In this document: piece by piece, positions 637 to 60,740 of the stretch | How positions within the stretch are numbered: the stretch's first letter is position 1 | Layout of the letters: the number at the start of each line of letters is the position of its first letter | Virus record (IMG/VR): IMGVR_UViG_3300023174_000176 | Coordinates: 1-61,407 of that record | Source of the DNA: a virus | Lineage: Duplodnaviria > Caudoviricetes | Length of the DNA stretch: 61,407 bases | Reading direction: 5' to 3' (one strand) | The notes under the pieces: model-generated | What the model saw: only the letters and a program-made list of their open reading frames with translations | Databases searched by the model: none | What the model was told of the DNA's origin: nothing | Translations under genes and position numbers: made by a program

Positions 637-3000
637 ATGGATTTCAAAAGTTTATTATCACAACTAGACCAGTTGAACGAAGCAAAAGAAAAAACTAAAA
701 CTGGCTTAAAGCATACTGCTGAGCCAGGTGGTTACGGTCGTAAAGACGATGAAGATGATGAAGGCAATAAAGTTAAATCTACTGCTGTCAAAAAAGGCAA
801 AGGTCGTCCTAAGAAAGATGCTGATGATTCGGGCGAAACTAAAAAGTATGACTTCAGTGCATTTGGCGTTAAGTCCGGCAAAGATGTTAAACTACCTAAG
901 CATGATAAAAAGAAAACTACAGTAGTTAAAGGTAAATCACAAAGCCATGCCTCTAATAAAGTAGATGACGGTACTGATCCTGGTGAAGAACCTAAAACAA
1001 AGAAAAAAGGTCTAAAAGAATATTTTGATTCACTAGATAAAGCATTGAACGAAGCTGAACAGATTCAAATCAAACCAGCAAGTCAAATGCCTAAAATGCC
1101 TGGTCAGACTTCAATGGGTCAAAAGCCAGCAATGCCAGGTCAACCGCAACAAGTTGCCGGACAACCACAGAAGCAAACACAAGTTATTGCTCAAGGTAAC
1201 AAGACATTAGGCACAGTTGATAACCCACAACTAGCACAACAGATTAAACAATCTATTGGTAAAGGCGAAATGACTTTGATGCCAAATCAAATGCATGAAG
1301 AAGATATTGGTAAGCACAACAATGCTACTACAGGCTTTGACGCATTAGTTCGTAAACTAACACCTAAGTATGGTGCAGAGGCAGCTAAACGTATTGCAGG
1401 TGCACAACTAAAGAAAATCCGTGAAGCCGATCAACCACCAAACGATAGTTTGTTGAGTCCAATCAGTGAAGCACGTGCTAAAGCCGATGACAAAGCTGAA
1501 AAAGCAGGTAAGAAAGTTACTAAAGATTTAGAATACGATATGAAGCACAAAGGTAAGGATGACGATAAAGCCGAGAAAGCCGGCAAGAAAGTTACCAAAG
1601 ATATTGAGTATGATGAGAAACATAAAAAGACAGTAAAAGAAGCGGCTAAGCCAGACTTCTTAGACCTAGACAAAGACGGCAACAAGAAAGAACCAATGAA
1701 AAAAGCCGCAACAGACAAAAAGAAAGTAAAAGAAGGTATGGATCATAGATTAAAGGCAGCCCGCCATATGGGTAAAGCACATGCTCTTACTAAAGAAGGC
1801 TATAATTGCCGTTACGATGACATGGAAGAATCAAGACACTATCACGAAGGCTACAAAGAAGGTCTAGATGAGTGTTATGGTCAAATGCCAATTCAAGGTT
1901 ATGTAGGTGAAGCAAACAATGAAGTAGCTGATATGGCTAGTTATGGTGCACATACACCTACCATGGAAGATGAATTAGATGAAGTCAGCCGCGGTGAATG
2001 GATGAAGCAAAAAGCTAAATCTACCCCTGGAGATACCTTTAAAGCATTTGGACAAACTTTTAAAGATAAAGAAGTTGTAGAAAGTCCATTCTTTGAAGCA
2101 TGGGATAAAGAATTAAATGCTATTTTAGAAGGTAAAGACGTTACTGAAGGTATGACTGTATCTATCAGCAAAGGTCAACAAGGTATGCCCGATTCAGTAA
2201 GTGTTTCAGCACAAGATAGTGAAGCTGACCAATTATTAAGTATTATTAAACAATCTGGTTTAGGTTTGTTTGGTGGAGATGATGCTGGTCAACCTCAATC
2301 AGCACAACCAATGACAGTTGACGGTGGTGAAGGTCCTCAAGCTGATATTGCAGTAGTAGACGACCATGATGACATGTTATCATTAATTCGTAAGATGACT
2401 GGTCAAGGACCTGCACAATCAAACAGTGATTATGAAGAAGAAGGTGGTGAACCTGCTCATTCACATGAAGAAGGTGAAGAAGAACCCTGTAATGAATGCG
2501 GTGGTATGATGGAAGAAGGTCATGCATGTGGTGAAGCAGTTGAAGAAGATGAGTCAATGGATCAACGTGAGTATGAAGTTGCAGAAGAAATTAATCCTAA
2601 CAACAATGATGAAGCTGAAGAAGAACAATCAGATGCTACACGTGATGCCGCACTAGCAACAGCAGCCGGTAAAAACTTTGCTGATACTGATGCTCCGCTT
2701 GAAGAAGGTGGCGACGGTGGAGAAGCGTCTGATGCAGGTGCAGAGGGTGTGGATATAGCTGATGTAGCTGATGAAACACAAGAAGATTTAGAAGAATCAT
2801 TAGCCAATGGTAATGATGACACGTTTGAAACTGATATTGACTTTATGACTAAAGTTATTTCAGGTGGTTTAAACAAGCAAAAATCTACTGGTCAAACAAC
2901 AATTCCAGTTGTATCTACTCAAGTAAATCGTTTAGGTAGCCCAATGAAGGAATCTACTGATTTATTACATGATTGGAAGAAATTAAGTGGTATTAAGTAA
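637..3000 (+). CDS. Large acidic/lysine-rich low-complexity protein, putative prohead core or internal polyprotein
   Basis: 787 aa, AAGGA RBS. Many [ILV]-x-E sites, duplicated DDKAEKAGKKVTKD(L/I)EYD, a DLDKDG loop and a C-terminal KKLSGIK motif. Confidence 0.55.
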   Translation: MDFKSLLSQLDQLNEAKEKTKTGLKHTAEPGGYGRKDDEDDEGNKVKSTAVKKGKGRPKKDADDSGETKKYDFSAFGVKSGKDVKLPKHDKKKTTVVKGKSQSHASNKVDDGTDPGEEPKTKKKGLKEYFDSLDKALNEAEQIQIKPASQMPKMPGQTSMGQKPAMPGQPQQVAGQPQKQTQVIAQGNKTLGTVDNPQLAQQIKQSIGKGEMTLMPNQMHEEDIGKHNNATTGFDALVRKLTPKYGAEAAKRIAGAQLKKIREADQPPNDSLLSPISEARAKADDKAEKAGKKVTKDLEYDMKHKGKDDDKAEKAGKKVTKDIEYDEKHKKTVKEAAKPDFLDLDKDGNKKEPMKKAATDKKKVKEGMDHRLKAARHMGKAHALTKEGYNCRYDDMEESRHYHEGYKEGLDECYGQMPIQGYVGEANNEVADMASYGAHTPTMEDELDEVSRGEWMKQKAKSTPGDTFKAFGQTFKDKEVVESPFFEAWDKELNAILEGKDVTEGMTVSISKGQQGMPDSVSVSAQDSEADQLLSIIKQSGLGLFGGDDAGQPQSAQPMTVDGGEGPQADIAVVDDHDDMLSLIRKMTGQGPAQSNSDYEEEGGEPAHSHEEGEEEPCNECGGMMEEGHACGEAVEEDESMDQREYEVAEEINPNNNDEAEEEQSDATRDAALATAAGKNFADTDAPLEEGGDGGEASDAGAEGVDIADVADETQEDLEESLANGNDDTFETDIDFMTKVISGGLNKQKSTGQTTIPVVSTQVNRLGSPMKESTDLLHDWKKLSGIK
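1486..1614 (+). repeat. Two-copy coding repeat DDKAEKAGKKVTKDxEYD
   Basis: Copies at 1486-1539 and 1561-1614 with mostly synonymous divergence. Confidence 0.85.
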
Positions 3001-3012
3001 TTAATAGTACTC

Positions 3013-3044
3013 AAAAGTACCCGGCAATAGTCGGGTATTTTTTT
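3013..3044 (+). terminator. Intrinsic terminator
   Basis: AAAAGTACCCGGC-AATA-GTCGGGTATTTTT hairpin with T-tract just after the stop at 3000. Confidence 0.75.
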
Positions 3045-3081
3045 GGGCTATAGTCTTTATAAAAAAACGATAAATACTCTA

Positions 3082-3177
3082 TATGACTGTTCCCATTATG
3101 GAAAAATGAGAGTAAGTACAAATATGAAAAGATACCATATGAATAATTGTAAACAGAAAGAGAAGGTGGTAGGATGA
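3082..3177 (+). pseudogene. Remnant of a homing-endonuclease C-terminal zinc finger
   Basis: Translates YDCSHYGKMRVSTNMKRYHMNNCKQKEKVVG*. Matches the CxxC...(R/H)(W/Y)H..xCK tails of the endonucleases at 17911, 19726 and 23203, with the second Cys changed to Tyr. Confidence 0.6.
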
Positions 3178-5597
3178 CCCAGCAGTACATAGATTTTGGT
3201 ACCTTCCCGGATGATCCAGATGCGGATGCCATCAGAACGGCATTCCAAAAAGTACAAAATAACTTCAATGAATTATATGCAACAACAACTAGTGGTTCAG
3301 TAACATCTGTTAATGGTGGTGCAGGAGTTAGTGTTAATACACCTACCGGCAACGTTATTGTTTCTGCAAATATTGCATGTGTTCAAGTAGCAACATCATC
3401 ATTAAGTATAGGTATAGGTGGTAATGGACTTACTACTGCAATACTAAGTAACACTTCACAAACATTATATATAGATATAAACCCATCAAATGTTTTTTCA
3501 GCTAATTTTGCAGCCAATTCAAGTGGTGGATTAGCAAATATAACCGGAACACTAACAGCCGCAGCCAGTAGTCAGCCCAATCTAACAACCGCGGCCAATT
3601 TAACAACAATAGGTACACTAGGTAATTTAACTGTAACCGGCAATATAACTGGTGGTAATTTAGTAACAGCTAATTATTTAACAGGTGTATTAACTTCATC
3701 ATCTCAACCAAACATTACTACTATAGGAAATTTAGGTAATCTCGTAGTTACTGTTAATAGTAATTTAGGTAACTTAGCAACAGCTAACTTCTTTAGTGGT
3801 GATGGTGGATTACTAAGTAATATACAGGTTACAGCAGGAACCTCAATTATTAATGGTACAAGTAATGTAGTAGTGGGAGCAAGTAGTAATGTTAACATTA
3901 GTGTAGCAGGTAATACTAACGTTATTACTGTCACTGGCACCGGTGTAAATGTAACTGGATATTTAACATCATCTGGTAATATTACAGCAACTAATGCAAG
4001 TTTAGGTAATGCAGTAACTGCTAATTTCTTTATTGGTAGTGGTGCAAATTTAACAAATATTGCAGGTGCCAATGTATCAGGTACCGTAGCTAATGCAACA
4101 TATGCCGTGACAGCTGGTACCGCTAATTCAGTTAGTGGAAGTAATGTTTCCGGTGCAGTAAGTTATGCAACAACAGCAAATAGTGTAGCCGGTGCTAATG
4201 TATCAGGTGCTGTTAGTTTAGCTACATCTGCAACAACAGCAAATAGTGTAGCCGGTGCTAATGTATCAGGTGATGTAGCTAATGCTACATATGCAACTAG
4301 TGCAGGTAGTGCTACAAGTGCTACTACTGCAGGTACCGTAACAACTGCGGCACAACCAAATATAACAAGCGTTGGCACATTAAGTACACTAGCAGTTACA
4401 GGTAATATAACAAGTGAAAATGTAAATGCAACTGGTAATATTTCAGCGGTAAACTTTATTGGTAATCTTGTTGGAAATATTTCAGGTAATATCGTAGTTC
4501 CGGGAAGTAACACCGAAGTATTATTCAATAATAATGGATCTGCTGGTACAAGTAACGCTTTCACTTTTAATCAGTCTAGCAATGTAATGACATTGAGTGG
4601 AAATATTATTACTGGGAACGTATTTGCCAACTCAGGCACAATACGTGCCACAACAGTTACTGGTACATTAACAACTAATGCTCAACCAAATATTACAAGT
4701 GTGGGGACGTTAACTGGGTTAACTGTTAGTGGTGTAACTAATTTAGGTAGTAATAGTAATGTAATTATTACCGGCGGTAATGCTAATGCATTTTTAATGA
4801 CAAATGGTTCAGGTAATTTGTCATGGATTTCTGGTACAGTATCACCTGTACCGGGTAGTAATACACAAGTTGTCTTTAACGAGGCGGGCAGTTTCTCAGC
4901 TAATTCTGGGTTAACATTTAATAAAACAACAAGTACATTATCTGTTGCTAACATCACCGGAAATCTGACAACTAGTACACAAGCTAATATCACTGAAATA
5001 GGTACATTAAAATATTTAATTGTTAGTACTGCAAATGGTGGTACAGGTAATATTAATGCAATTAATGTTATTGGTACACATTATGGTGCGGCAACTGGAT
5101 TAACTTCTATACCCGGAGCCAATGTATCAGGTACTGTAGCTAACGCTACATATGCAACTAGTGCAGGTAATGCTACTACCGCAGGTACTGTGACTACTAA
5201 TGCTCAACCAAATATTACAAGTGTTGGTACGTTAGCTAATTTAACAGTAGGTAATACAATTACATCCAATGGTACTTCTGTATTATCAGTATTTTCTAGA
5301 CGAACAAGTATATCGGTTACTACAAATACAATAATTGATACTTTCCCTACAAATTCATACCGAGTAGCAAAATATACAATACGTGCTTCTGATACAACCG
5401 GCTATCAGGCTATTGAGGTTCTGTTAGTCCATAACGGAATAAATAGTACTATAACTGTATATGGAAGTTTATCAACTACAAATAATGATATTATAACAAT
5501 TAGTACAGATATTAGTGCTGGAAATGTAAATGTTTATGCCAATGCTGTGGGTTCTAGTACAACGGTAAATTTAATAGGAACTTATGTTCCAGATTAA
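3174..5597 (+). CDS. Tail fibre, baseplate-proximal
   Basis: N-terminal FPDDPDADAIRTAFQKVQNNF resembles T4 gp9/gp10-type anchors. Contains AQPNITSVGTL repeats and a C-terminal IDTF..YR.AKY domain. Confidence 0.7.
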   Translation: MTQQYIDFGTFPDDPDADAIRTAFQKVQNNFNELYATTTSGSVTSVNGGAGVSVNTPTGNVIVSANIACVQVATSSLSIGIGGNGLTTAILSNTSQTLYIDINPSNVFSANFAANSSGGLANITGTLTAAASSQPNLTTAANLTTIGTLGNLTVTGNITGGNLVTANYLTGVLTSSSQPNITTIGNLGNLVVTVNSNLGNLATANFFSGDGGLLSNIQVTAGTSIINGTSNVVVGASSNVNISVAGNTNVITVTGTGVNVTGYLTSSGNITATNASLGNAVTANFFIGSGANLTNIAGANVSGTVANATYAVTAGTANSVSGSNVSGAVSYATTANSVAGANVSGAVSLATSATTANSVAGANVSGDVANATYATSAGSATSATTAGTVTTAAQPNITSVGTLSTLAVTGNITSENVNATGNISAVNFIGNLVGNISGNIVVPGSNTEVLFNNNGSAGTSNAFTFNQSSNVMTLSGNIITGNVFANSGTIRATTVTGTLTTNAQPNITSVGTLTGLTVSGVTNLGSNSNVIITGGNANAFLMTNGSGNLSWISGTVSPVPGSNTQVVFNEAGSFSANSGLTFNKTTSTLSVANITGNLTTSTQANITEIGTLKYLIVSTANGGTGNINAINVIGTHYGAATGLTSIPGANVSGTVANATYATSAGNATTAGTVTTNAQPNITSVGTLANLTVGNTITSNGTSVLSVFSRRTSISVTTNTIIDTFPTNSYRVAKYTIRASDTTGYQAIEVLLVHNGINSTITVYGSLSTTNNDIITISTDISAGNVNVYANAVGSSTTVNLIGTYVPD

Positions 5598-51063: not shown

Positions 51064-52020
51064 ATGAGTATAACAATATCAGGTGGATTTACAATGGCAG
51101 GCGGTGGATTTACACTAGTTCCCCCACCCTCAACAAATCCAACTGCAGGATGGTTTGGTGGCGGATCATATGGCGGATACAAATCATTGGTAAACCGTAT
51201 TACATTTGCAACTGATACAGCTACTGCATCAGTTAGAGGTCCTTTGAGTTTGGCTAGAGGAGGTCTTGCTGGCACCGGTAATACAACATATGGTTGGTTT
51301 GGTGGTGGTACCGGACCAACTACTTCATTAGTGGACCGTATTACGTACTCAACTGACACCGATACTGCAACTACTAGAGGTCCGTTAACGGCTGTTGCTT
51401 ATGGACAGGGAGCTACTGGTACATCAACTAATGGCTGGTTTGGTGGTGGATTTGTTGGCGGTAACGTTTCTGCTGTTTATAGAATAACATACGTTACAGA
51501 TACTGCAACTGCAAGTTCACGTGGCCCGTTAAGTTCTGCTAGATATGGTTTGGCAGCAACTACAGATAATACTACATATGGGTGGTTTGGTGGCGGTGCT
51601 AACGCTGCTCCAAGATCAATAGTGGATCGTATTACATATGCAACAGATACTGATACAGCAAGCGTAAGAGGTTCACTAACTGAAGTTAGTAGATTTAATG
51701 CCGGTACCGGCACTACAACTTATGGATATTTTGCAGGAGGTTACTTTCCGGCAGCTCCTTACTATCTGTCTATTGTAAATAGGATAACATATGCAACTGA
51801 TACTGCTACTGCAACTGCACGTGGCCCATTAAGTCAAGCAAGGACTCAGTTAGCGGCTGTTGGCAATGATACTTATGGATATTTTGGTGGTGGAGATGGT
51901 TCCCCTGCTACTTCTACTATAGACCGTATTACATATGCAACCGATACTGCAACCGCTACTAGTGTAGGACCAATGAGTCAAGTAAATAGACTTTATGCAG
52001 GAACTTCGGGTATACAATAA
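51064..52020 (+). CDS. Six-blade Kelch-like propeller protein 4
   Basis: Six repeats; ends SGIQ. Confidence 0.75.
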   Translation: MSITISGGFTMAGGGFTLVPPPSTNPTAGWFGGGSYGGYKSLVNRITFATDTATASVRGPLSLARGGLAGTGNTTYGWFGGGTGPTTSLVDRITYSTDTDTATTRGPLTAVAYGQGATGTSTNGWFGGGFVGGNVSAVYRITYVTDTATASSRGPLSSARYGLAATTDNTTYGWFGGGANAAPRSIVDRITYATDTDTASVRGSLTEVSRFNAGTGTTTYGYFAGGYFPAAPYYLSIVNRITYATDTATATARGPLSQARTQLAAVGNDTYGYFGGGDGSPATSTIDRITYATDTATATSVGPMSQVNRLYAGTSGIQ

Positions 52021-52035
52021 AATAAAGGAATAAGA

Positions 52036-53007
52036 ATGTCAGTAACATTTAGTGGTGGAATAACATTTACAGGTGGTGGGTTTAGTTTTACAGCCGCACC
52101 TCCTTCATCAGCTACTGCAGGATGGTTTGGTGGCGGGTATGTATCATCTATTCCTTTCCCAAATAGACAGTTATCTACCGTTCAACGTATTACATTTGCA
52201 ACAGATACTGCAACCGCTACTATTAGAGGGCCACTAAGTGCCGGCCGACAATCAGGATCAGGTACAAGTACATTTACATATGGTTGGTTTGGTGGAGGAT
52301 ATAATGTACCTACTGCATTATCTTCTATTGACCGTATTACTTTTGCAAGTGATACTAGTACAAGTAGTACAAGGGGACCGCTAGCAATTGCAACTAATAA
52401 ACTAACTAGTACTGGTACTGATAGTTACGGTTGGTTTGTCGGTGGTTTTTTTCCGAGTGGTTTATTATCATCCAATGTACAACGGGTAGATTATGCAGCC
52501 GACACCGCCACTGCAAGTCAGCGAGGCAAGTTATATTCACCTTTTAGAAGTCAAGGGGGAGTAGGTGATACTACTTATGGCTGGTTTGTCGGAGGCACAA
52601 ATCCGGCTACTTCATACATACAAAGAATTATATATGCTACAGATACTGCAACTGGATCTTTAAGAGGTTCGTTAGATGCTAGCCGATATGCAATGGGTAC
52701 CGTTGGTACTAATACATATGGTTGGTTTGCCGGTGGGTTTCAGCCAGGGAAAGGGGGTGTATCTAGCATATCTCGTATGGAGTATGCTACTGATACTGCG
52801 ATCACTTCTAGTAGAGGGCCACTTACTGGCAGCCGCTATAATAATTCCGGGGTAGCGGATACTACATATGGTTGGTTTGGTGGAGATACAACACCAACAA
52901 CTAATATTAATCGTATTATATTTGCAACAGATACAGCTACTGCTACTAGTAGAGGGCCGTTAGCAACTGCTAGTGGTTATATGGGTTCCGTTTCAGGTAT
53001 ACAATAA
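52036..53007 (+). CDS. Six-blade Kelch-like propeller protein 5
   Basis: Six repeats; ends SGIQ. Confidence 0.75.
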   Translation: MSVTFSGGITFTGGGFSFTAAPPSSATAGWFGGGYVSSIPFPNRQLSTVQRITFATDTATATIRGPLSAGRQSGSGTSTFTYGWFGGGYNVPTALSSIDRITFASDTSTSSTRGPLAIATNKLTSTGTDSYGWFVGGFFPSGLLSSNVQRVDYAADTATASQRGKLYSPFRSQGGVGDTTYGWFVGGTNPATSYIQRIIYATDTATGSLRGSLDASRYAMGTVGTNTYGWFAGGFQPGKGGVSSISRMEYATDTAITSSRGPLTGSRYNNSGVADTTYGWFGGDTTPTTNINRIIFATDTATATSRGPLATASGYMGSVSGIQ

Positions 53008-53019
53008 AAAGGATTTATA

Positions 53020-53394
53020 ATGTCAGTAACATTTAGTGGTGGAATAACATTTACAGGTGGTGGGTTTAGTTTTACAGCCGCACCTCCACCTACTGCAACA
53101 AATGGTTGGTGGGCAGGCGGTGCGCCATCAAACTCTGCAGTATCACGTATTACTTTTGCTACTGATACAGATTCTGCTACTACTAGAGGACCATTAGCAT
53201 TTAGTCAATTTGATGGTCCTGGTTCAACTGGTAATGGTAATTATGGTTGGTTTGGTGGTGGCTACACTCCTGGACTAGGAACACTTAGTTCAGTTGACCG
53301 AGTAGATTATAGTAATGACACTATTACTGCATCTACTAGGGGTAATACCGGAAGATATGTGCAAGATTTGGGCGCTACAGCAAATATACCGTAA
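53020..53394 (+). CDS. Two-blade paralog
   Basis: First 68 nt identical to 52036; two repeats; ends ANIP. Confidence 0.7.
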   Translation: MSVTFSGGITFTGGGFSFTAAPPPTATNGWWAGGAPSNSAVSRITFATDTDSATTRGPLAFSQFDGPGSTGNGNYGWFGGGYTPGLGTLSSVDRVDYSNDTITASTRGNTGRYVQDLGATANIP

Positions 53395-53446: not shown

Positions 53447-54043
53447 ATGATTAAGATTACAGTTCCATTACCCAAAAGTATCACAATCGCATTCAGTGGC
53501 GGTGTTGACTCTTGCGCTATCGTTGACTTTCTAAGTCGTAAACACGATGTCTCTTGTGCTTATTATCATCATGGTACTGAACATAGTAACAAAGCACTAG
53601 ATTTTGTATCTAACTTCTGTGAGGATAGAAATCTTCCATTATATTTAGGTGTACTAAATCGTGATAAACCTAAATCAATGAGCCAGGAAGAATTCTGGAG
53701 AGAAGAACGCTATAAATATTTCTCTACACTTGGTCCGGTTATTACCGCTCATCACTTGGATGACTGCGTAGAAACATATATCTGGTCAAGTCTTCATGGT
53801 ACACCCAAAGTTATTCCATTAACAAGAAACAATGTACTAAGACCATTTCTCACAACAAGAAAAGAAGATTTCATCTATTGGTGCGAAAGTCATAACATTG
53901 AATGGTGTGAGGATAAGTCTAATAAAAATAACAAATATATCCGCAATTACATTCGCAATGAACTAATGCCACACGCATTACGAGTTAACCCAGGTTTACA
54001 TAAAACGGTTAAAAAGATTGTAGAAGGTAAACAAAATACTTGA
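53447..54043 (+). CDS. tilS: tRNA(Ile)-lysidine synthase-like PP-loop ATPase (catalytic domain only)
   Basis: AFSGGVDS, R.ERY, TAHHLDD..ET, RPFL, EDKSN and RNYIRN. Confidence 0.85.
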   Translation: MIKITVPLPKSITIAFSGGVDSCAIVDFLSRKHDVSCAYYHHGTEHSNKALDFVSNFCEDRNLPLYLGVLNRDKPKSMSQEEFWREERYKYFSTLGPVITAHHLDDCVETYIWSSLHGTPKVIPLTRNNVLRPFLTTRKEDFIYWCESHNIEWCEDKSNKNNKYIRNYIRNELMPHALRVNPGLHKTVKKIVEGKQNT

Positions 54044-54068
54044 CTTCCCTGCACAATTCAAGTATACT
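54040..54068 (+). promoter_or_regulatory. Sigma70-type promoter
   Basis: TTGACT-17 nt-TATACT. Confidence 0.7.
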
Positions 54069-54091
54069 AACTAATTATTTAAGGAGAAACT

Positions 54092-54358
54092 ATGTCGGAT
54101 TATAACAGAACGTTTAATGGTGAAGCAAAAATTAAGCTTACCCAAATCGTAAATGAAGGGATGCATGTACTACATGAAATTGATACATTGAATGGTGGAT
54201 TAAATGACACTATTAAAGCGGTGGCTGATGAGCTGGAAATTAAAGCCAGTACACTAAAGAAAGCAATTAAAATTGCACACAAGGCATCATTAGGTCAGAC
54301 TAACAAGGATCACGATGAACTCAACACAATCCTAGAAACTGTAGGGAAAACCCTTTAA
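54092..54358 (+). CDS. Small helical DNA-binding protein (T4 DsbA/GapR-like)
   Basis: 88 aa; LNDTIKAVADELEIKASTLKKAIKIAHK. Confidence 0.5.
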   Translation: MSDYNRTFNGEAKIKLTQIVNEGMHVLHEIDTLNGGLNDTIKAVADELEIKASTLKKAIKIAHKASLGQTNKDHDELNTILETVGKTL

Positions 54359-54747
54359 TGTCATATGTGGATGCTATTCACAGTAGGGATGAAGACCGTA
54401 TCTATGTAGTAGAAAGAAACAAAGACGGCAAAAGAGAATATAAAGAATATCCTACAAATTACGTATTGTATTATCCTGATCCTAAAGGTAAACATCGTAG
54501 CATATATGGTGATCCAGTCAGTCGTTTTAGTACTCGCAAACGACAAGAGTTTGAAAAAGAAAGACGCATCCACTCAAATAAAAAACTATTTGAGAGTGAT
54601 GTACCAGTCGTCTTCCGTTGTCTAAGTGAAAACTATCTTGGCATTGATGCACCTAAACTTCATACATGTTTCTTTGACATTGAGGTTGATTGGAAGCCCG
54701 CAGAGGTTGATGAAAATGTTAAGGTAAGGATACGTAAAAAAGAATAA
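54358..54747 (+). CDS. DNA polymerase B, N-terminal part
   Basis: LFESDV and Exo I motif FFDIEV, then a basic tail and TAA TAA. Confidence 0.85.
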   Translation: MSYVDAIHSRDEDRIYVVERNKDGKREYKEYPTNYVLYYPDPKGKHRSIYGDPVSRFSTRKRQEFEKERRIHSNKKLFESDVPVVFRCLSENYLGIDAPKLHTCFFDIEVDWKPAEVDENVKVRIRKKE

Positions 54748-54773
54748 TTATTTATTGATATTGAGGTAGTTTG

Positions 54774-54781
54774 TATAAATA
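54774..54781 (+). promoter_or_regulatory. T4-consensus late promoter for the HNH gene
   Basis: TATAAATA. Confidence 0.65.
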
Positions 54782-54798
54782 CTAGTATAAGGATTAAT

Positions 54799-55533
54799 AT
54801 GAATTACCACTCTATTTACTACAATTTGATAAATAATGCTCTTATATTAGGTCGCACTAAAAAACCAAACGATGGATTAGACCGCCATCATATTATTCCT
54901 AAAAGCTTAGGAGGTAGTAATGATGCATCTAATTTAGTTTTGCTGACAGGCAAGGAACACTATTTGGCCCATAAATTACTTGTTAAGATGCATATTGGAA
55001 CAAATCGTAAAAAAATGATTTATGCACTTTGGTGGATGTCTAAAACCAAGATTACAGGTAATCATTCAAATAAAACAAGAATTACTTCTAGGGATTACGA
55101 ACATTCTAGAAAATTATTTATTGAAGCCAATGTAAATAATGATCCTATCCGAAAAGCAAAGTTTAAAAAAAACAGGACAGATGGTCTATACAAGTATGAT
55201 AATGCTAGTATGGGTAAATCATTAAGCCGCACTCTTGCCAAATTATCCAAAAAAGATATGAAAGAAAGAATGTTAAATTCTACTATGACTGCTGACCATG
55301 AAGCAAGAGTATTAGCAATAAGAAGGGGTAAAGCTTCAACTATTGAAGTGATAGACTTAAATGGGATAACAGAAACTATATTTTCGGATCAGGTTGTGGA
55401 TAAATTAAATCTATCGTGGCCACAGATAAAATATCGTCTAAAAGCCCATAACGGTTTACTTTTAGACGGTAGAATAGTAAAATTAATAAACAAATATACA
55501 GGTGGTAATAAGTGGAAGAAGAAGAAAAAATAA
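54799..55533 (+). CDS. HNH homing endonuclease inside the polB locus
   Basis: HHIIPKSLGGSNDASNLVLLT.KEHYLAHKLL. Confidence 0.9.
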   Translation: MNYHSIYYNLINNALILGRTKKPNDGLDRHHIIPKSLGGSNDASNLVLLTGKEHYLAHKLLVKMHIGTNRKKMIYALWWMSKTKITGNHSNKTRITSRDYEHSRKLFIEANVNNDPIRKAKFKKNRTDGLYKYDNASMGKSLSRTLAKLSKKDMKERMLNSTMTADHEARVLAIRRGKASTIEVIDLNGITETIFSDQVVDKLNLSWPQIKYRLKAHNGLLLDGRIVKLINKYTGGNKWKKKKK

Positions 55534-58022
55534 TAACAGTCAAAGATTTACGATCATTGCAGAATAAACAGAATTTTGAAGTATGGGATGATCGTTTGGG
55601 TGGATGGGTTGATATTGAACATTCTACTTATATGGTCAAGGGAAAACATGCAGGATTCAGTCCTACTAGTGATCCATTCAATCCTGTAACAGCTATCAGT
55701 TGTTACTTAGATTGGCTAGACCAATTAGTTACATTAGTGATTGCTCCGAAACATATGTCTAGTGAAACAGCCCAAGAAATCACTAATGAGTTTGAGAATA
55801 CAATGCTATTCACAAACGAAAAAGAAATGTTTGACGTTTTCTTTCAATTAATAGATGATGCTGATGTACTAACTGGCTGGAACAGTGAAGGCTATGATAT
55901 TCCCTACATGGTGAATCGTGTTACTAGAGTAATGAGTAAGGATGACACACGCAAGTTCTGCTTGATGGGTCAACTTCCTAAAGCTAGAGAATACGAGCGA
56001 TTCGGTAAAACAGAAACAACTTACGACTTAGTAGGTCGTATTCACTTAGATTATCTACAACTATATAAGAAGTATAACTATGAATCACGCCATAGTTACA
56101 AACTTGATAGTATCGGTGAGATGGAAGTCGGTGAAAACAAAACACAATATGAAGGTACTCTTGACCAACTGTATAACAAAGACTTTAAAAAGTTTATTGA
56201 ATACAATAGACAAGATACTATGTTGTTGGTTAAGATTCACAACAAACTTAAGTTTTTAGAATTAGCTAATCAACTTGCACATGAGAACACAGTACTGCTT
56301 CCAACAGTTATGGGTTCAGTGGCAATGATTGAGATGGCAATTTTTAATGAAGCACACGAACGTGGCTTAGTAGTACCAGATAAAAAACGAAAGGTTGAAA
56401 ATGATGAAGAAGTACAGCAGGCAGCAGGTGCCTTTGTTGCTACGCCGAAAAGAGGCATGCATGAATATGTCGGAGCAGTTGACATTAACTCACTCTATCC
56501 CTCGGTTATTCGTGCCCTCAACATGGCAGGTGAAACCATCGTTGCTCAAGTCAGACAAACTATCACAGACCAATATATGCACGACAAGGGATTACGATTA
56601 GCAAGTGAAAAGAAACGTCACAAAGAAGGTGATGATGCTGTTACAGGAAGTATTCTATGGGAAAATCTGTTTGGTGCATTAGAATATACTGCTATTATGA
56701 ACCAAGAACGTGGTACAATTCTTACTGTTGACTACGAAGATGGTCGTAGTGTAGAAATGTCAGCCGCAGAAATATGGAAGATGATTTTTGATAGTCATAA
56801 GCCCTGGATGTTAAGTGCTAATGGTACAATCTTTACTTATGAAAAAGAAGGTGTCGTACCCGGTCTACTAACTCGCTGGTACTCGGATCGTAAAGAGATG
56901 CAGAAAAAACTCAAAGAAGCAACTACTACAGAGGATAGAGAGTACTGGGACAAACGACAACTTGTTCGTAAGATTTTACTTAACTCAGCGTATGGTGCAT
57001 TGTTAAATGAACATTGTCGTTTCTATGACAAACGTATTGGTCAATCAGTTACATTATCTGGTCGGCAAATTGTTAAGCATATGATGAGTACTATCAATGA
57101 AACAGTTGAAGGTATCTATTCACATGAAGGCAATGCTATTGTGTATGGTGATACTGACAGTTGTTACTTCACAGCTTATCCAACATTAAAGCCACAGATT
57201 GAATCTGGTCTATTAGAGTGGAATAAAGAAACTTGTATTGGATTATATGATGGTATTGCTGACCAAGCTAATGAATCGTTCCCTGCATTTATGGAGAAAG
57301 CTTTTCATGCACCACGTAAGAATGGTGCAATCATTAAAGCAGGACGTGAATTGATTGGTGATCGTGCTATCTTTATCGTTAAGAAGCGTTATGCTATTAA
57401 TATCTTTGACAAAGAAGGTAAACGTAAAGATAAAGACGGACAACTAGGTGATATCAAAGCTATGGGTCTAGACTTGAAACGTGCTGATACTCCCAAGTAT
57501 GTACAAGAATTTTTAATGAATGTACTACAGATGGTTCTACAACAAGGTAAAGGTCGTGATGAGGTTATTGAAGCAGTCAAGGATTTTAAACGTATATTAA
57601 CAGCACAGGATAGTTGGACTAAAGGTTCACCTAAAGGTGTAAACAAACTTACATACTATGGTGACTTAGAATCTAAGAGCATTACAGGTCGTGCAAATAT
57701 GCCCGGTCACGTTAGAGCGGCATTGAATTATAATTACTTACGTAGAGTCAATAACGATAATTATAGTCAAAAGATCATTGATGGTATGAAGGTTGTAGTA
57801 TGTAAACTTAAAAGTAATCCATTAGGTTTTACAAGTGTAGCATATCCAGTAGATGAATTACGTTTACCCAAATGGTTTACAGAATTGCCATTTGATGATT
57901 CAGCAATGGAACAAACGTTAGTAGACGAAAAGATTGATAACTTATTGGGCGTATTAGATTGGGATATTCGTAGTAATACAGATACTAACAGTACATTCAA
58001 TGATTTATTCAGTTTCGGTTAA
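55512..58022 (+). CDS. DNA polymerase B, C-terminal part
   Basis: GWNSEGYD (Exo II), YNRQD (Exo III), DINSLYPS, KILLNSAYG, YGDTDS and KKRY. GTG start with GGTGG RBS. Confidence 0.95.
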   Translation: MEEEEKIITVKDLRSLQNKQNFEVWDDRLGGWVDIEHSTYMVKGKHAGFSPTSDPFNPVTAISCYLDWLDQLVTLVIAPKHMSSETAQEITNEFENTMLFTNEKEMFDVFFQLIDDADVLTGWNSEGYDIPYMVNRVTRVMSKDDTRKFCLMGQLPKAREYERFGKTETTYDLVGRIHLDYLQLYKKYNYESRHSYKLDSIGEMEVGENKTQYEGTLDQLYNKDFKKFIEYNRQDTMLLVKIHNKLKFLELANQLAHENTVLLPTVMGSVAMIEMAIFNEAHERGLVVPDKKRKVENDEEVQQAAGAFVATPKRGMHEYVGAVDINSLYPSVIRALNMAGETIVAQVRQTITDQYMHDKGLRLASEKKRHKEGDDAVTGSILWENLFGALEYTAIMNQERGTILTVDYEDGRSVEMSAAEIWKMIFDSHKPWMLSANGTIFTYEKEGVVPGLLTRWYSDRKEMQKKLKEATTTEDREYWDKRQLVRKILLNSAYGALLNEHCRFYDKRIGQSVTLSGRQIVKHMMSTINETVEGIYSHEGNAIVYGDTDSCYFTAYPTLKPQIESGLLEWNKETCIGLYDGIADQANESFPAFMEKAFHAPRKNGAIIKAGRELIGDRAIFIVKKRYAINIFDKEGKRKDKDGQLGDIKAMGLDLKRADTPKYVQEFLMNVLQMVLQQGKGRDEVIEAVKDFKRILTAQDSWTKGSPKGVNKLTYYGDLESKSITGRANMPGHVRAALNYNYLRRVNNDNYSQKIIDGMKVVVCKLKSNPLGFTSVAYPVDELRLPKWFTELPFDDSAMEQTLVDEKIDNLLGVLDWDIRSNTDTNSTFNDLFSFG

Positions 58023-58831: not shown

Positions 58832-59190
58832 TAGACCATGTATACGGGGGTGAGTTTCTAGCTGTTACTAGTAGTAAGGGTTCAACTCCTTTTATTAACA
58901 ATAGTAACCCTATTACAGGTACGGTAGCATACGACTCTAATAGTCAGACGTTGAAAGTCTATGATGGACATAGCTTTCTAACATTAGGTGGCGGAGTTGC
59001 TAACATTCATTTGACACAAAATGCTATCAGTATCTTAAAGTGGGCTGAACAAAAAATGCTAGAAGAAGCCGAGCGCAACAAATTAGCAGAAACAACCCCC
59101 GCTATTAAAGACTTGATGGACCAGATCAAAGAAAAAGAGGAACAAGTTCGTATTGTTCAAACATTGTTAAAAGAAGAAATAAAAGTTTAA
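58828..59190 (+). CDS. Hypothetical protein
   Basis: 120 aa, ATGA-coupled; C-terminal coiled coil. Confidence 0.6.
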   Translation: MIDHVYGGEFLAVTSSKGSTPFINNSNPITGTVAYDSNSQTLKVYDGHSFLTLGGGVANIHLTQNAISILKWAEQKMLEEAERNKLAETTPAIKDLMDQIKEKEEQVRIVQTLLKEEIKV

Positions 59191-60740
59191 TGGAACAAGA
59201 TAATCTATCAGCAAAACAAAACCCTGAATGGGCATTGTTCTTACCTGCAGTCAGTAGTTTCTATATCTCTGGCTTAGGTAAACAACGTAAAGGTGAAGAG
59301 TACTTTGATAAGGCACGAATCCCTGCACAATTCAATGGTGATGTAGAGAAACTAAACTTCTTAAATAGTAATGAAGGTCTTTATTATTATAAATGGGGTT
59401 TGTATAGTGCTGGTCATGCTAACTTAGATACAACTGTAAACGATCCTAGTGAAAGTATCATTAGAGAACGTGAAGCTGGAACATTTATGTTGGGTGATTC
59501 TGGTGGATTTCAGATTCTTAAAGGTCAATGGCCAGCTGATTGGAAAGATCCTAATTGCCCTAAAGCTATGATTAAGCGTAAAGCAGTATTGAATTGGATG
59601 GATACTTATATGGACTATGGTATGGTCCTTGATATTCCTTCACAATCCTTAACTACCTTTCATATGAAAGATAAGAATGGTAATAGTCTTCATGGTATCA
59701 GCACTATTCAGGAAGCAATTACTGCTACTCATATTAATAACGAATACTTCATTAACAATCGTTCGGGTAAATGTAAGTTCCTAAATGTATTACAAGGTCG
59801 TACACATACACAGTCAGATGATTGGTATGCTGAAATGAAGAAATATTGTGACCCAAATATCTATCCAGATACTCATTTTAATGGTTGGGCATTTGGTGGT
59901 CAGAACAAGATTGATGTACATTTGATGCTAACTAGAATGGTTGATATTATCCATGATGGTTTGTTGCAAGAAGGTAAACATGATTTGATTCACTGTTTGG
60001 GTACTAGCATCTTAGAGTATGCTGTATTGTTTACTGATATTCAGAAAGCTATTCGTAAGTATCATAACCCAAAACTTCAGATTACATTTGATTGTGCAAG
60101 CCCATTCTATAGTGCGGCTAAGGGTTTAGCATATTTCAATACTAATATTGAGCATAATAAAAAATGGTCATACAGTATGGAAAAGACTGCCGAAAAGAAA
60201 GAATATGCAAGTGATACTAGAAAATATCGTGATGCTGTATTAGCTGAAGGTATCCATAAAGTCTTTACAGATAGTCCAGTTACTGATAAACTAGTGCTTA
60301 AGGACATGTGTTATAGGGGACATGGTTTCTTGGGACAGCATAACAAAGAAACTAAAACTAGTTGGGATACATTGAGTTATACATTAATTCAAAGTCACAA
60401 TGTTTGGATGCATATGAATGCTGTACAAGAGGCTAATCGTCAATATGAACAAGGTGTTGTTCCTAAGATGTTAATGAATGAACAGTTTGAACGTGTATTG
60501 TTCAAAGATGTTATTGATGAAATCTTTAGTAAGAAAACTAAACAGGAATCTATTGATTTGATTAATCAAAACAGTAGATTGTGGATGCAATTTCAATCAG
60601 GTAGTCAGGGTATTAGTGGTAAACGAACTGTTAATGCATTGAGTAAGTTTGAAGAATTATTTGAAGTTCAGAATGAACCAGAGTTTGAAGAAGTAATAGA
60701 GGATAGCGATGATGCTATGAATGAAATACTAGGAGAGTAA
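59190..60740 (+). CDS. TGT/DpdA-like guanine transglycosylase
   Basis: LGDSGGFQ, VLDIP, NVLQG, GWAFGG, HCLG and TFDCAS follow the TGT barrel motif order. Confidence 0.7.
   Translation: MEQDNLSAKQNPEWALFLPAVSSFYISGLGKQRKGEEYFDKARIPAQFNGDVEKLNFLNSNEGLYYYKWGLYSAGHANLDTTVNDPSESIIREREAGTFMLGDSGGFQILKGQWPADWKDPNCPKAMIKRKAVLNWMDTYMDYGMVLDIPSQSLTTFHMKDKNGNSLHGISTIQEAITATHINNEYFINNRSGKCKFLNVLQGRTHTQSDDWYAEMKKYCDPNIYPDTHFNGWAFGGQNKIDVHLMLTRMVDIIHDGLLQEGKHDLIHCLGTSILEYAVLFTDIQKAIRKYHNPKLQITFDCASPFYSAAKGLAYFNTNIEHNKKWSYSMEKTAEKKEYASDTRKYRDAVLAEGIHKVFTDSPVTDKLVLKDMCYRGHGFLGQHNKETKTSWDTLSYTLIQSHNVWMHMNAVQEANRQYEQGVVPKMLMNEQFERVLFKDVIDEIFSKKTKQESIDLINQNSRLWMQFQSGSQGISGKRTVNALSKFEELFEVQNEPEFEEVIEDSDDAMNEILGE

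Follow-up and report, generated by a model that had tools for sequence, protein, structure and literature searches.

We studied a DNA polymerase B (PolB) gene on an IMG/VR viral contig of 61.4 kb (IMGVR_UViG_3300023174_000176). The whole stretch of 61,407 nucleotides (nt) was analysed and is called the window. The window is estimated to comprise ~18% of the genome of an uncultured freshwater phage, which would make it a jumbo phage with a genome of about 340 kb. The polymerase is encoded in two pieces, separated by a free-standing HNH gene that lies within a small accessory module of the enzyme. It is likely that this Mob-like HNH gene fractures PolB, that the two chains associate non-covalently, and that the module and the HNH gene form one mobile cassette. 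The locus occurs in four allelic states, the cassette has a history discordant with that of its host gene, and the polymerase tails that it carries are constrained.

The first open reading frame (ORF; 54358-54747, all parts of the locus being on the plus strand) encodes the N-part of 129 amino acids (aa). The N-terminal domain begins here and is followed by Exo I (FFDIEVD, with D107/E109) and a tail of 18 aa; the translation ends with ...FFDIEVDWKPAEVDENVKVRIRKKE* at the stop codon TAA. After a gap of 51 nt (54748-54798) follows the HNH gene (54799-55533, 244 aa), whose ATG is preceded by TAAGGA at 5 nt. The N-part and the HNH ORF are in one shared frame and a lone TAA separates them. The C-part (55512-58022, 836 aa) overlaps the HNH gene by 22 nt, starts with GTG and encodes the remainder of the exonuclease domain, with Exo II and Exo III, as well as the complete polymerase domain. 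Its translation opens with (M)EEEEKIITVKDLRSL...GFSPTSDPF. The start signal of the C-part (55500-55514) consists of AGGTGG (55500-55505), a 6-nt spacer and the GTG, all within the 3' end of the HNH gene. The initial annotation of this DNA had pointed out the 51-nt gap, the overlap, the C-part's own ribosome-binding site with GTG and its acidic head, and all of these are present, the head having a pI of 5.2 and a net charge of -3. It had also called the end of the N-part basic. This is true of the last residues RIRKK only, since the tail as a whole (A115-E129) is weakly basic with a pI of 8.5 and a net charge of +0.8.

The C-part matched Pfam DNA_pol_B (1.6e-42) and DNA_pol_B_exo1 (4.9e-19). 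The N-part matched PHROG DNA polymerase families (9.2e-11) and, by tblastn, the first ~114 aa of unsplit jumbo-phage PolBs. The middle ORF was recognised by Pfam HNH with 24.1 bits (cut-off 21.4) and by PHROG 655 'homing endonuclease' (3.3e-33). It is the sole HNH match within the window, and its protein is 31-37% identical to annotated homing endonucleases of T4-like phages. The closest cultured relatives of the C-part are Rak2-like jumbo-phage PolBs with 44-48% identity, and a megablast of the locus against cultured phages gave no match. The N-part contains DIE, and NSEGYD, YNRQD, DINSLYPS, KILLNSAYG and YGDTDS are found in the C-part translation. We take these five to be Exo II, Exo III and the polymerase motifs A, B and C; the motifs A, B and C were judged intact by eye. 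A PolB fractured right after Exo I by a free-standing HNH gene, as initially annotated, was recovered.

The initial annotation had proposed an alignment with uninterrupted homologs. In the single polymerase coding sequence (CDS) of Sinorhizobium phage Phosso, the residues 1-114 of the N-part and 48-835 of the C-part abut within 6 nt. Since these portions are contiguous in the unsplit enzyme, the tails are extra sequence. The N-part ends in 15-18 such residues and the C-part opens with 47, in total 62-65.

A search of 5.8 billion proteins with the first 130 residues of the C-part gave 2852 matches, of which the best 120 were examined. Among these, 25 were C-parts with the same start and a head of 44-47 aa, down to 61% identity, and 94 were unsplit PolBs of ~900 aa that read DIEVDFDPEKGFSP without extra residues. 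The remaining one, P0023 (locus L010, 958 aa), is unsplit and has the N-tail and the C-head as a single continuous stretch of 63 aa. A search with the N-part gave 248 matches. The 120 listed included 31 split N-parts (128-133 aa) that share the conserved end xVKIRKK, and two unsplit fragments with the continuous segment (P0182, P0191). A diverged subfamily of split N-parts reads DIEVxMQPYAYP..VKIRKK. Split N- and C-parts were found down to 54-61% identity. When viral contigs were scanned with P0191, ten loci (L086-L095) were obtained in which the diverged segment is continuous; where complete, their PolB ORF has 979-980 aa. Five more distant unsplit PolBs (P0244, P0252, P0256, P0257 and P0259), obtained with the profile search described next, also contain the segment, and it is continuous in at least 18 unsplit PolBs.

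A profile of the segment was searched against 1.84 billion representative proteins and returned 19 matches, 12 PolBs and 7 long repeat proteins. In the repeat proteins, 16-29 columns were matched in 6-9 stretches, corresponding to a Kelch-like hairpin, and these candidates were rejected as motif-level matches. Four of the seven were scanned and contained peptidase C25/FG-GAP, C1q/S74, ankyrin and Kelch/Ig domains. Since only the short hairpin is shared, as with the Kelch matches in the PDB, the 7 proteins were set aside, and the segment was then found in no protein family besides PolB among the 1.84 billion representatives. With Pfam, the segment gave only Myco_19_kDa at E<=10, a chance match, and a feature search of the ESM Atlas with the segment gave no usable match.

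The tails therefore belong together as two halves of one accessory insertion module, which is present in some PolBs. The N-tail WKPAEVDENVKVRIRKKE (54691-54744) is strand 1 of the module and aligns with the beginning of the segment where unsplit PolBs have it uninterrupted. The C-head of 47 aa (55512-55652) provides the strands 2-4 and a short helix. Because the segment is continuous in unsplit PolBs, the tails are no adaptation created for the split, and the view of the initial annotation that they are a device made for it has to be given up. The break and the HNH gene are located in the first loop of the module. In the N-tail, V123 and R126 are invariant over 28 N-parts and I125 and K128 nearly so. 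In the C-head, E5, L13, K19, E23, V24, W32, V33, S38 and G44 are invariant over 20 C-parts. The head starts acidic (EE, EEEE or EEKE), whereas the same loop is mostly basic or neutral in the unsplit forms; only this acidic start appears specific to the split forms. AlphaFold 2 (AF2) predicted the continuous segment alone with a mean pLDDT of 81 as strand-strand-helix-strand-strand, with the strand of the N-tail at residues 11-16 and the break between strands 1 and 2. With a mean pLDDT of 55, the AF2 model of the whole protein P0023 was not good enough to show where the module lies with respect to the active site.

The mobile cassette of the window extends from 54691 to 55652, ~960 nt. In it, the stop, the spacer and the HNH gene are enclosed by the 5' and 3' parts of the segment. 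When compared at the codon level, it stands in for five codons, FDP(D/E)K, of insert-less alleles. The insert-less state is the most common, found in the 94 unsplit matches without extra residues mentioned above and in 75/80 loci. The continuous module is the second state. The third, split with the HNH gene, is represented by the window, L006, L008 and L009, and the fourth, split without it, by L007, which has an N-part of 129 aa, a C-part of 830 aa and a spacer of 82 nt between them. This spacer is a remnant of the HNH 3' end, 97% identical over 66 nt, with the AGGTGG and the GTG kept. Since L007 is still split, the split outlives the endonuclease gene. Three variants have an intact HNH ORF that includes the motif. 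L006 contains an ortholog of 242 aa, and L008/L009 contain a variant of 329 aa that has an internal Cys-rich insertion and an unchanged C-terminus. All 4 split loci with readable DNA contain the HNH gene or its remnant. Among the best 120 matches, which form a close clade, 26 carry the module, and 25 of these are split. L007 also has a 229-aa ORF just upstream of the N-part (2703-3389, minus strand) that matched phrog_655 (2.5e-8) and phrog_314 (6e-6) and no Pfam family; by these matches it is a putative second endonuclease-like gene at the locus.

The history of the cassette is discordant with that of the PolB host gene, and its distribution is sporadic. Between the window and L006, identity was 89% over the tail and spacer, 86-87% over the HNH gene and 92% over the head, all of which are absent from the insert-less loci. 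The PolB body of the window, by contrast, is 68-78% identical to L006 and 88-97% to the insert-less L063, L073 and L064. The borders of the discordant tract match those of the cassette, within the compared bins of 140-400 nt. The protein comparisons gave the same picture. The window and the insert-less P0041, which has no head, share 95.2% of the core, whereas head and core are 84% and 78.6% identical to the split P0011 and 100% and 89.6% to the split P0003; P0004 and P0011 are 95.6% identical in the head and 79.0% in the core. In one almost identical pair, the insert-less P0101 and the split P0006, 780 of 785 core residues (99.4%) agree although P0101 has no head, and the N-terminus of P0101 agrees with the split N-part P0121 in 109/110 positions. 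The same number, 109/110, was found in a second subfamily between the insert-less L166 and the split N-part P0204. A contig of this second split subfamily (P0204/P0107) was absent from the viral and metagenome scans, which returned insert-less relatives only, 79/80 loci in one scan and none tailed in the other.

A FastTree of 105 full-length PolB cores was calculated with Phosso as the outgroup, leaving out 15 of the 120 with <700 core residues. The split state required 8 changes on this tree, at least 6 of the changes being forced by the starred branches. The mean of shuffled states was 16.1, and 0 of 500 shuffles were as low. The phage was also traced in metagenomes of lakes, rivers and other freshwater. 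Any part of the stretch was found in 20 public runs from 11 studies; 18 runs cover half or more of the sampled words. Run X1 contained a contig of 1083 nt that is identical to the window and spans both junctions of the cassette. X1, X2 and X19 contained contigs in which 54683/9-55652/70 is replaced by 19-33 nt coding for DFDPEKGF or a close variant; in X1 and X2 the replacement has 21-33 nt. Since the DNA runs X1 and X2 hold both types of contig, the alleles coexist within the same samples.

Both tails are under purifying selection. For tail and head together, the dN/dS ratio between the window, L006 and L007 was 0.06-0.16, a rough value from few codons. The complex of the N-part with the residues 1-420 of the C-part was then predicted, each with its own alignment and with 3 controls. 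The prediction reached 0.90 versus 0.01 for the best control, the runs shared at least 87% of the contacts and the partner pLDDT was at least 88. This mark was reached by 58 of 80 solved complexes and by 2 of 110 mismatched pairs. The predicted interface includes the residues 101-128 of the N-part and 3-50, 55-68 and 113-123 of the C-part, and hence both tails. The most confident pairs are between the Exo I strand (102-109) and the C-part residues 61-68 and 117-121, and the tails are not among them. Co-folding of the halves, as suggested in the initial annotation, placed the tails in the interface, with the most confident contacts made by the native Exo I strand as it docks into the exonuclease sheet. 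From its proposal of a non-catalytic clasp, we retain that the tails fold as one unit, are conserved and lie in the predicted interface, but not that they arose for the split.

Taken together, these observations suggest the following course of events. The N-part would stop at the TAA, and the C-part would be translated from the GTG with the help of the Shine-Dalgarno sequence that the end of the HNH gene provides. With its Exo I strand, the N-part would dock into the beta-sheet of the C-part exonuclease, and with its tail it would contribute the first strand to the small module formed by the C-head. Since Exo I is on one chain and Exo II and III are on the other, the proofreading site would be composite, and the locus would encode a PolB whose proofreading site is shared across two polypeptides. 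The ~960-nt cassette would move between PolB alleles, most likely by homing into insert-less ones, and the endonuclease gene may later be lost while the split persists. We infer the expression and association of both halves as well as the activity and the target of the endonuclease.

A candidate recognition site of the endonuclease is TTCTTTGACATTGAGGTAGACTTTGATCCT, the 30 nt that precede the insertion point. In 52 unique insert-less sequences from L011-L085, no other stretch of the region is conserved as well as this one, with a conservation of 0.95-0.97 overall and 0.84-0.92 at third codon positions; other 15-nt bins mostly have 0.6-0.8. The spacer of the window contains a look-alike of the Exo I coding sequence at 54755-54773 that is identical to 54674-54692 in 16 of 19 positions. 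With up to 3 mismatches, the pattern has 3 matches in the window versus 0.08 expected. The look-alike is kept in the spacers of L006 and L008, resembles the insert-less consensus more than it resembles the Exo I of the window itself and is in frame with the HNH ORF. It may be what an earlier insertion site has left behind, or it may serve as a target-mimic operator. A promoter-like TTGATA-17-AATACT (54755-54783) overlaps it, a match not above shuffles. Apart from the look-alike, only short direct repeats of chance size were found flanking the HNH gene.

Further interruptions were observed at other places of PolB genes. Six of the 120 PolB relatives (P0012, P0018, P0053, P0054, P0076 and P0077) end after the motif C YGD in the same 116-aa intein N-fragment, which looks like part of a canonical split intein, as in phage MIJ3. 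P0012 and P0018 have the Exo I head at their start as well, so that three pieces would be needed to build these polymerases. In cultured relatives, PolB is split at other sites, in L001 (Atu_ph07, 1147-4116) into two CDS 18 nt apart. In L003 (Klebsiella phage KP13-7, 1156-5919), a gene of 978 nt with matches to homing-endonuclease PHROGs (2e-9) lies between the PolB pieces. The PolB ORF of L087 and L088 (4001-6388) has the continuous segment and ends after 795 aa, versus ~980 in its sisters, and may be interrupted further downstream.

Several points weigh against the proposed mobile cassette with two associating chains. The basal rows of the tree all carry the module, so that the direction of change is ambiguous; for part of the patchiness, gain and loss (the latter through conversion from insert-less alleles) may be equally good explanations. 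The tree itself is a FastTree of a recombining gene. The metagenome contigs could be chimeric; this is countered by the X1 contig that spans both junctions and by four other loci with junctions like those of the window. Because the PolB fold has many solved structures, the pass in the complex prediction signifies likeness to the intact PolB and not binding. The RNA runs X19 and X20 contained no contig over the cassette and are uninformative on transcripts, X19 being probably DNA. Finally, with ~18% of the genome in the window, a second polymerase elsewhere is possible.

This last point would also allow that the split polymerase is a dead gene and that another polymerase replicates the genome. 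We regard this as very improbable, since both halves are intact with all catalytic motifs, the tails have a low dN/dS, the split form occurs in many diverged lineages and samples, and L007 has retained the start signals after the loss of the HNH gene. No more tenable is a removal of the interruption, either by RNA splicing of a group I or II intron with an HNH ORF or by protein trans-splicing, to give one polypeptide; of all explanations it has the least to commend it. HNH-encoding introns are described in phage polymerase genes (PMC10580990), and split inteins with HNH genes in the PolB of a jumbo phage (PMC6892783). At the present locus, a scan of 54000-56500 with Rfam at E<=10 returned no intron family among its 5 matches, all of them at chance level. 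The flanks are under codon constraint, and unsplit relatives have them as ordinary coding sequence. The L007 spacer of only 82 nt is too short for an intron. As for protein splicing, the tail starts with WKPA and the head ends with KHA followed by Gly, so that a nucleophile at position 1 or +1 and a terminal His-Asn are missing, and the whole segment has 62-65 aa only. None of the 25 heads has a +1 Cys, Ser or Thr or a His-Asn. The initial annotation had likewise described non-splicing tails without Cys/Ser1 and His-Asn, which holds for the window, although a few relatives (P0121, P0146 and P0138) have Ser or Thr after WKP. Since the joints over the cassette in the metagenomes are replacements in DNA runs, they represent alleles and not splice products. 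An unlikely explanation, though a more serious one, is that the patchiness is not driven by the endonuclease at all. The module would be old and inherited vertically, homologous recombination in co-infections would swap the alleles, and the HNH gene would be a late, possibly inactive passenger. In its favour, distant PolBs have the unsplit module and no HNH gene, all basal rows of the tree carry the module, and the HNH gene has decayed in L007. Against it stand the coincidence of the discordant tract with the cassette borders (again within the 140-400-nt bins), the tight association of module, split and HNH gene or remnant, and the HNH ORF that is intact in three variants.

The ancestry of the module and the role of the tails are a separate matter, and the answer given here is compatible with the cassette being mobile. 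Possibly, the ~60-aa segment is the degenerate, non-splicing remnant of an S1-type atypically split intein, the pieces of which dock like IntN and IntC and clasp the polymerase; we consider this less likely than not. The initial annotation had noticed a resemblance of the joined tails to the first strands of a Hint domain. This likeness is weak but recurrent and was never significant. With the segment profile, the best PDB match was the VidaL intein (6vgv, E 0.009, VidaL residues 4-41). VidaL was rank 4 (E 0.1) with a profile of unsplit forms only and rank 2 (E 0.028) with the pooled profile, preceded in these two only by short Kelch-type repeat matches or a weak gp119 match. The aligned stretches are ..VVQIRLTKKG/MIEEKKVTVQELREL.. 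in VidaL and ..VKVRIRKKE*/MEEEEKIITVKDLRSL.. in the window. VidaL is described as naturally split after an IntN of 16 aa, right after strand beta2 (PMC13014065), and its break would be at the same aligned place as that of the window if chain residue 4 corresponds to intein residue 1. Foldseek ranked the atypically split intein PolB16_OarG first and second in the PDB (8cpo, 8cpn) and the Prp8 intein fifth, none significantly (E 0.68-1.0, TMq 0.42, rmsd 6 A). The top matches in BFVD were topoisomerase 2 (E 0.017, TMq 0.58), ribonucleotide reductase, DNA polymerases and DnaB, proteins of kinds that often host inteins; the alignments may fall outside the inteins. Also on the side of an intein origin, Crona et al. 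raised the same idea for the tails of Aeh1 (PMC3045599).

Other results speak against an intein ancestry. The Pfam Hint families gave no match to the segment at E<=10, and the blocks B, F and G are absent from it. A phmmer search of the PDB with two continuous segments found calmodulin, ArtA and AP2 at E 0.4-4, by chance, and no intein, and the ESM Atlas was negative as stated above. A by-eye alignment with the motif-C intein fragment of the same lineage was dropped after hhalign gave a probability of 0.4%. No relative with a longer, intein-sized insert at the Exo I site was found, and the segment is confined to PolBs among the representatives searched, the 7 repeat proteins aside. Moreover, AF2 folds the segment as a compact unit, whereas no half Hint fold is known to do so on its own. 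A still more doubtful extension is that the segment is a domesticated fragment of an S1-type atypically split intein that has been stripped of its entire splicing chemistry but has kept the IntN/IntC docking. The selfish cassette would then bring along its own non-covalent 'protein staple', and the Exo I look-alike in the spacer would be a target-mimic operator, such as I-TevI is said to use. If this were true, the locus would be a missing link between split inteins and the non-splicing NrdA tails of Aeh1, with all intermediates persisting in lake phages.

In the surroundings of the locus, three tandem paralogous ORFs (318, 323 and 124 aa) at 51064-53394 contain repeats such as RITFATDTATA..RGPL...YGWFGGG. 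The first of them was scanned and had no Pfam match. The G+C content is 0.42-0.45 at 51064-53394 versus 0.31-0.37 in the polymerase region. Two genes upstream of PolB, at 53447-54043, a PP-loop ATPase of 198 aa is encoded that is syntenic in L007, L008 and L010. It matched Pfam ATP_bind_3 (1.2e-31), which we take to be the family of the N-terminal domain of lysidine synthase (TilS). A TilS gene is reported in a jumbo phage (PMC6892783). Downstream of PolB, an ORF of 516 aa (59190-60740) matched no Pfam or PHROG family.

A gene brought into pieces by a free-standing homing endonuclease is of a known kind, to which nrdA/mobE of Aeromonas phage Aeh1 and gene 43 of the phages 25/44RR belong. The nrdA gene of Aeh1 is split by mobE and has tails needed for activity, as reported by Friedrich et al. 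(2007) and Crona et al. (2010, PMC3045599). Petrov et al. are said to have described in 2010 the split gene 43 of the phages 25/44RR, with the break elsewhere in the gene than here. A review of T4 mobile elements lists mobE in Aeh1 nrdA, mobA in T4 gene 39/60 and a seg gene with an IC-UTS in gene 43 of 25/44RR (PMC2988022). As described for Aeh1, a free-standing Mob-type HNH gene here fragments an essential replication-related gene beside active-site residues, the downstream half overlaps the endonuclease gene, RNA and protein splicing are lacking, and the upstream tail is positive and the downstream tail negative. In contrast to nrdA, the host gene here is PolB with the break after Exo I, and many natural intermediates exist. 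In the account of Aeh1, the tails have no database match and are taken as foreign DNA fused at insertion, whereas here they are halves of a module that is continuous in at least 18 unsplit homologs, and thus no mobile-element-derived feature of split genes only. Crona et al. (2010) suggested that such tails may be general, perhaps derived from degenerate inteins, and predicted more tail-bearing cases (PMC3045599).

Gene 43 of the Aeromonas phages 25/44RR is likewise a T4-type PolB in two cistrons. The endonuclease gene is between the cistrons in one phage and a short untranslated spacer is found in a relative, as in L007, and the halves co-purify and are active (PMC2988022). Unlike the HNH gene here, the endonuclease gene of those phages is of a Seg-like (GIY-YIG) type, and a group I intron has a part in the arrangement as well. 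An in-frame module that travels with the endonuclease gene is described here; the passages of that review on 25/44RR do not present one (PMC2988022). The review regards the question of how enzyme fragments associate after a split by a selfish gene as open (PMC2988022). In fractured genes, split inteins flank a free-standing endonuclease gene (Dassa et al. 2009, PMC2677866), and the PolB of the jumbo phage MIJ3 has a real split intein with an HNH gene (PMC6892783). These share with our locus the order of gene half, endonuclease and gene half and the extra in-frame sequence flanking the break. They differ in that our locus lacks intein blocks and nucleophiles and its extra sequence is far too short, making ligation impossible. 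Atypically split inteins have an IntN of 16 aa in VidaL (PMC13014065) and of 15 aa in PolB16 OarG (PMC10189870). As reported for these two, the upstream piece here has 15-18 aa with a basic end, the downstream piece starts with M-x-E-E and the break is after the second strand. Their IntC, however, has ~130-170 aa with all motifs and they splice, and PolB16 is inserted at the SGDTD motif and not at Exo I.

A PolB break at Exo I was not found described in the literature searched. Compared with the known systems, new here are the break at Exo I with its composite proofreading site, the pre-existing foldable module that co-travels with an endonuclease gene, and the full natural allelic series. This series, from intact genes through the continuous module and the split with endonuclease to the split after endonuclease loss, is found in closely related and abundant freshwater phages. 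With it, one can directly test what the tails do, in which order the events took place and whether the module is an intein remnant.

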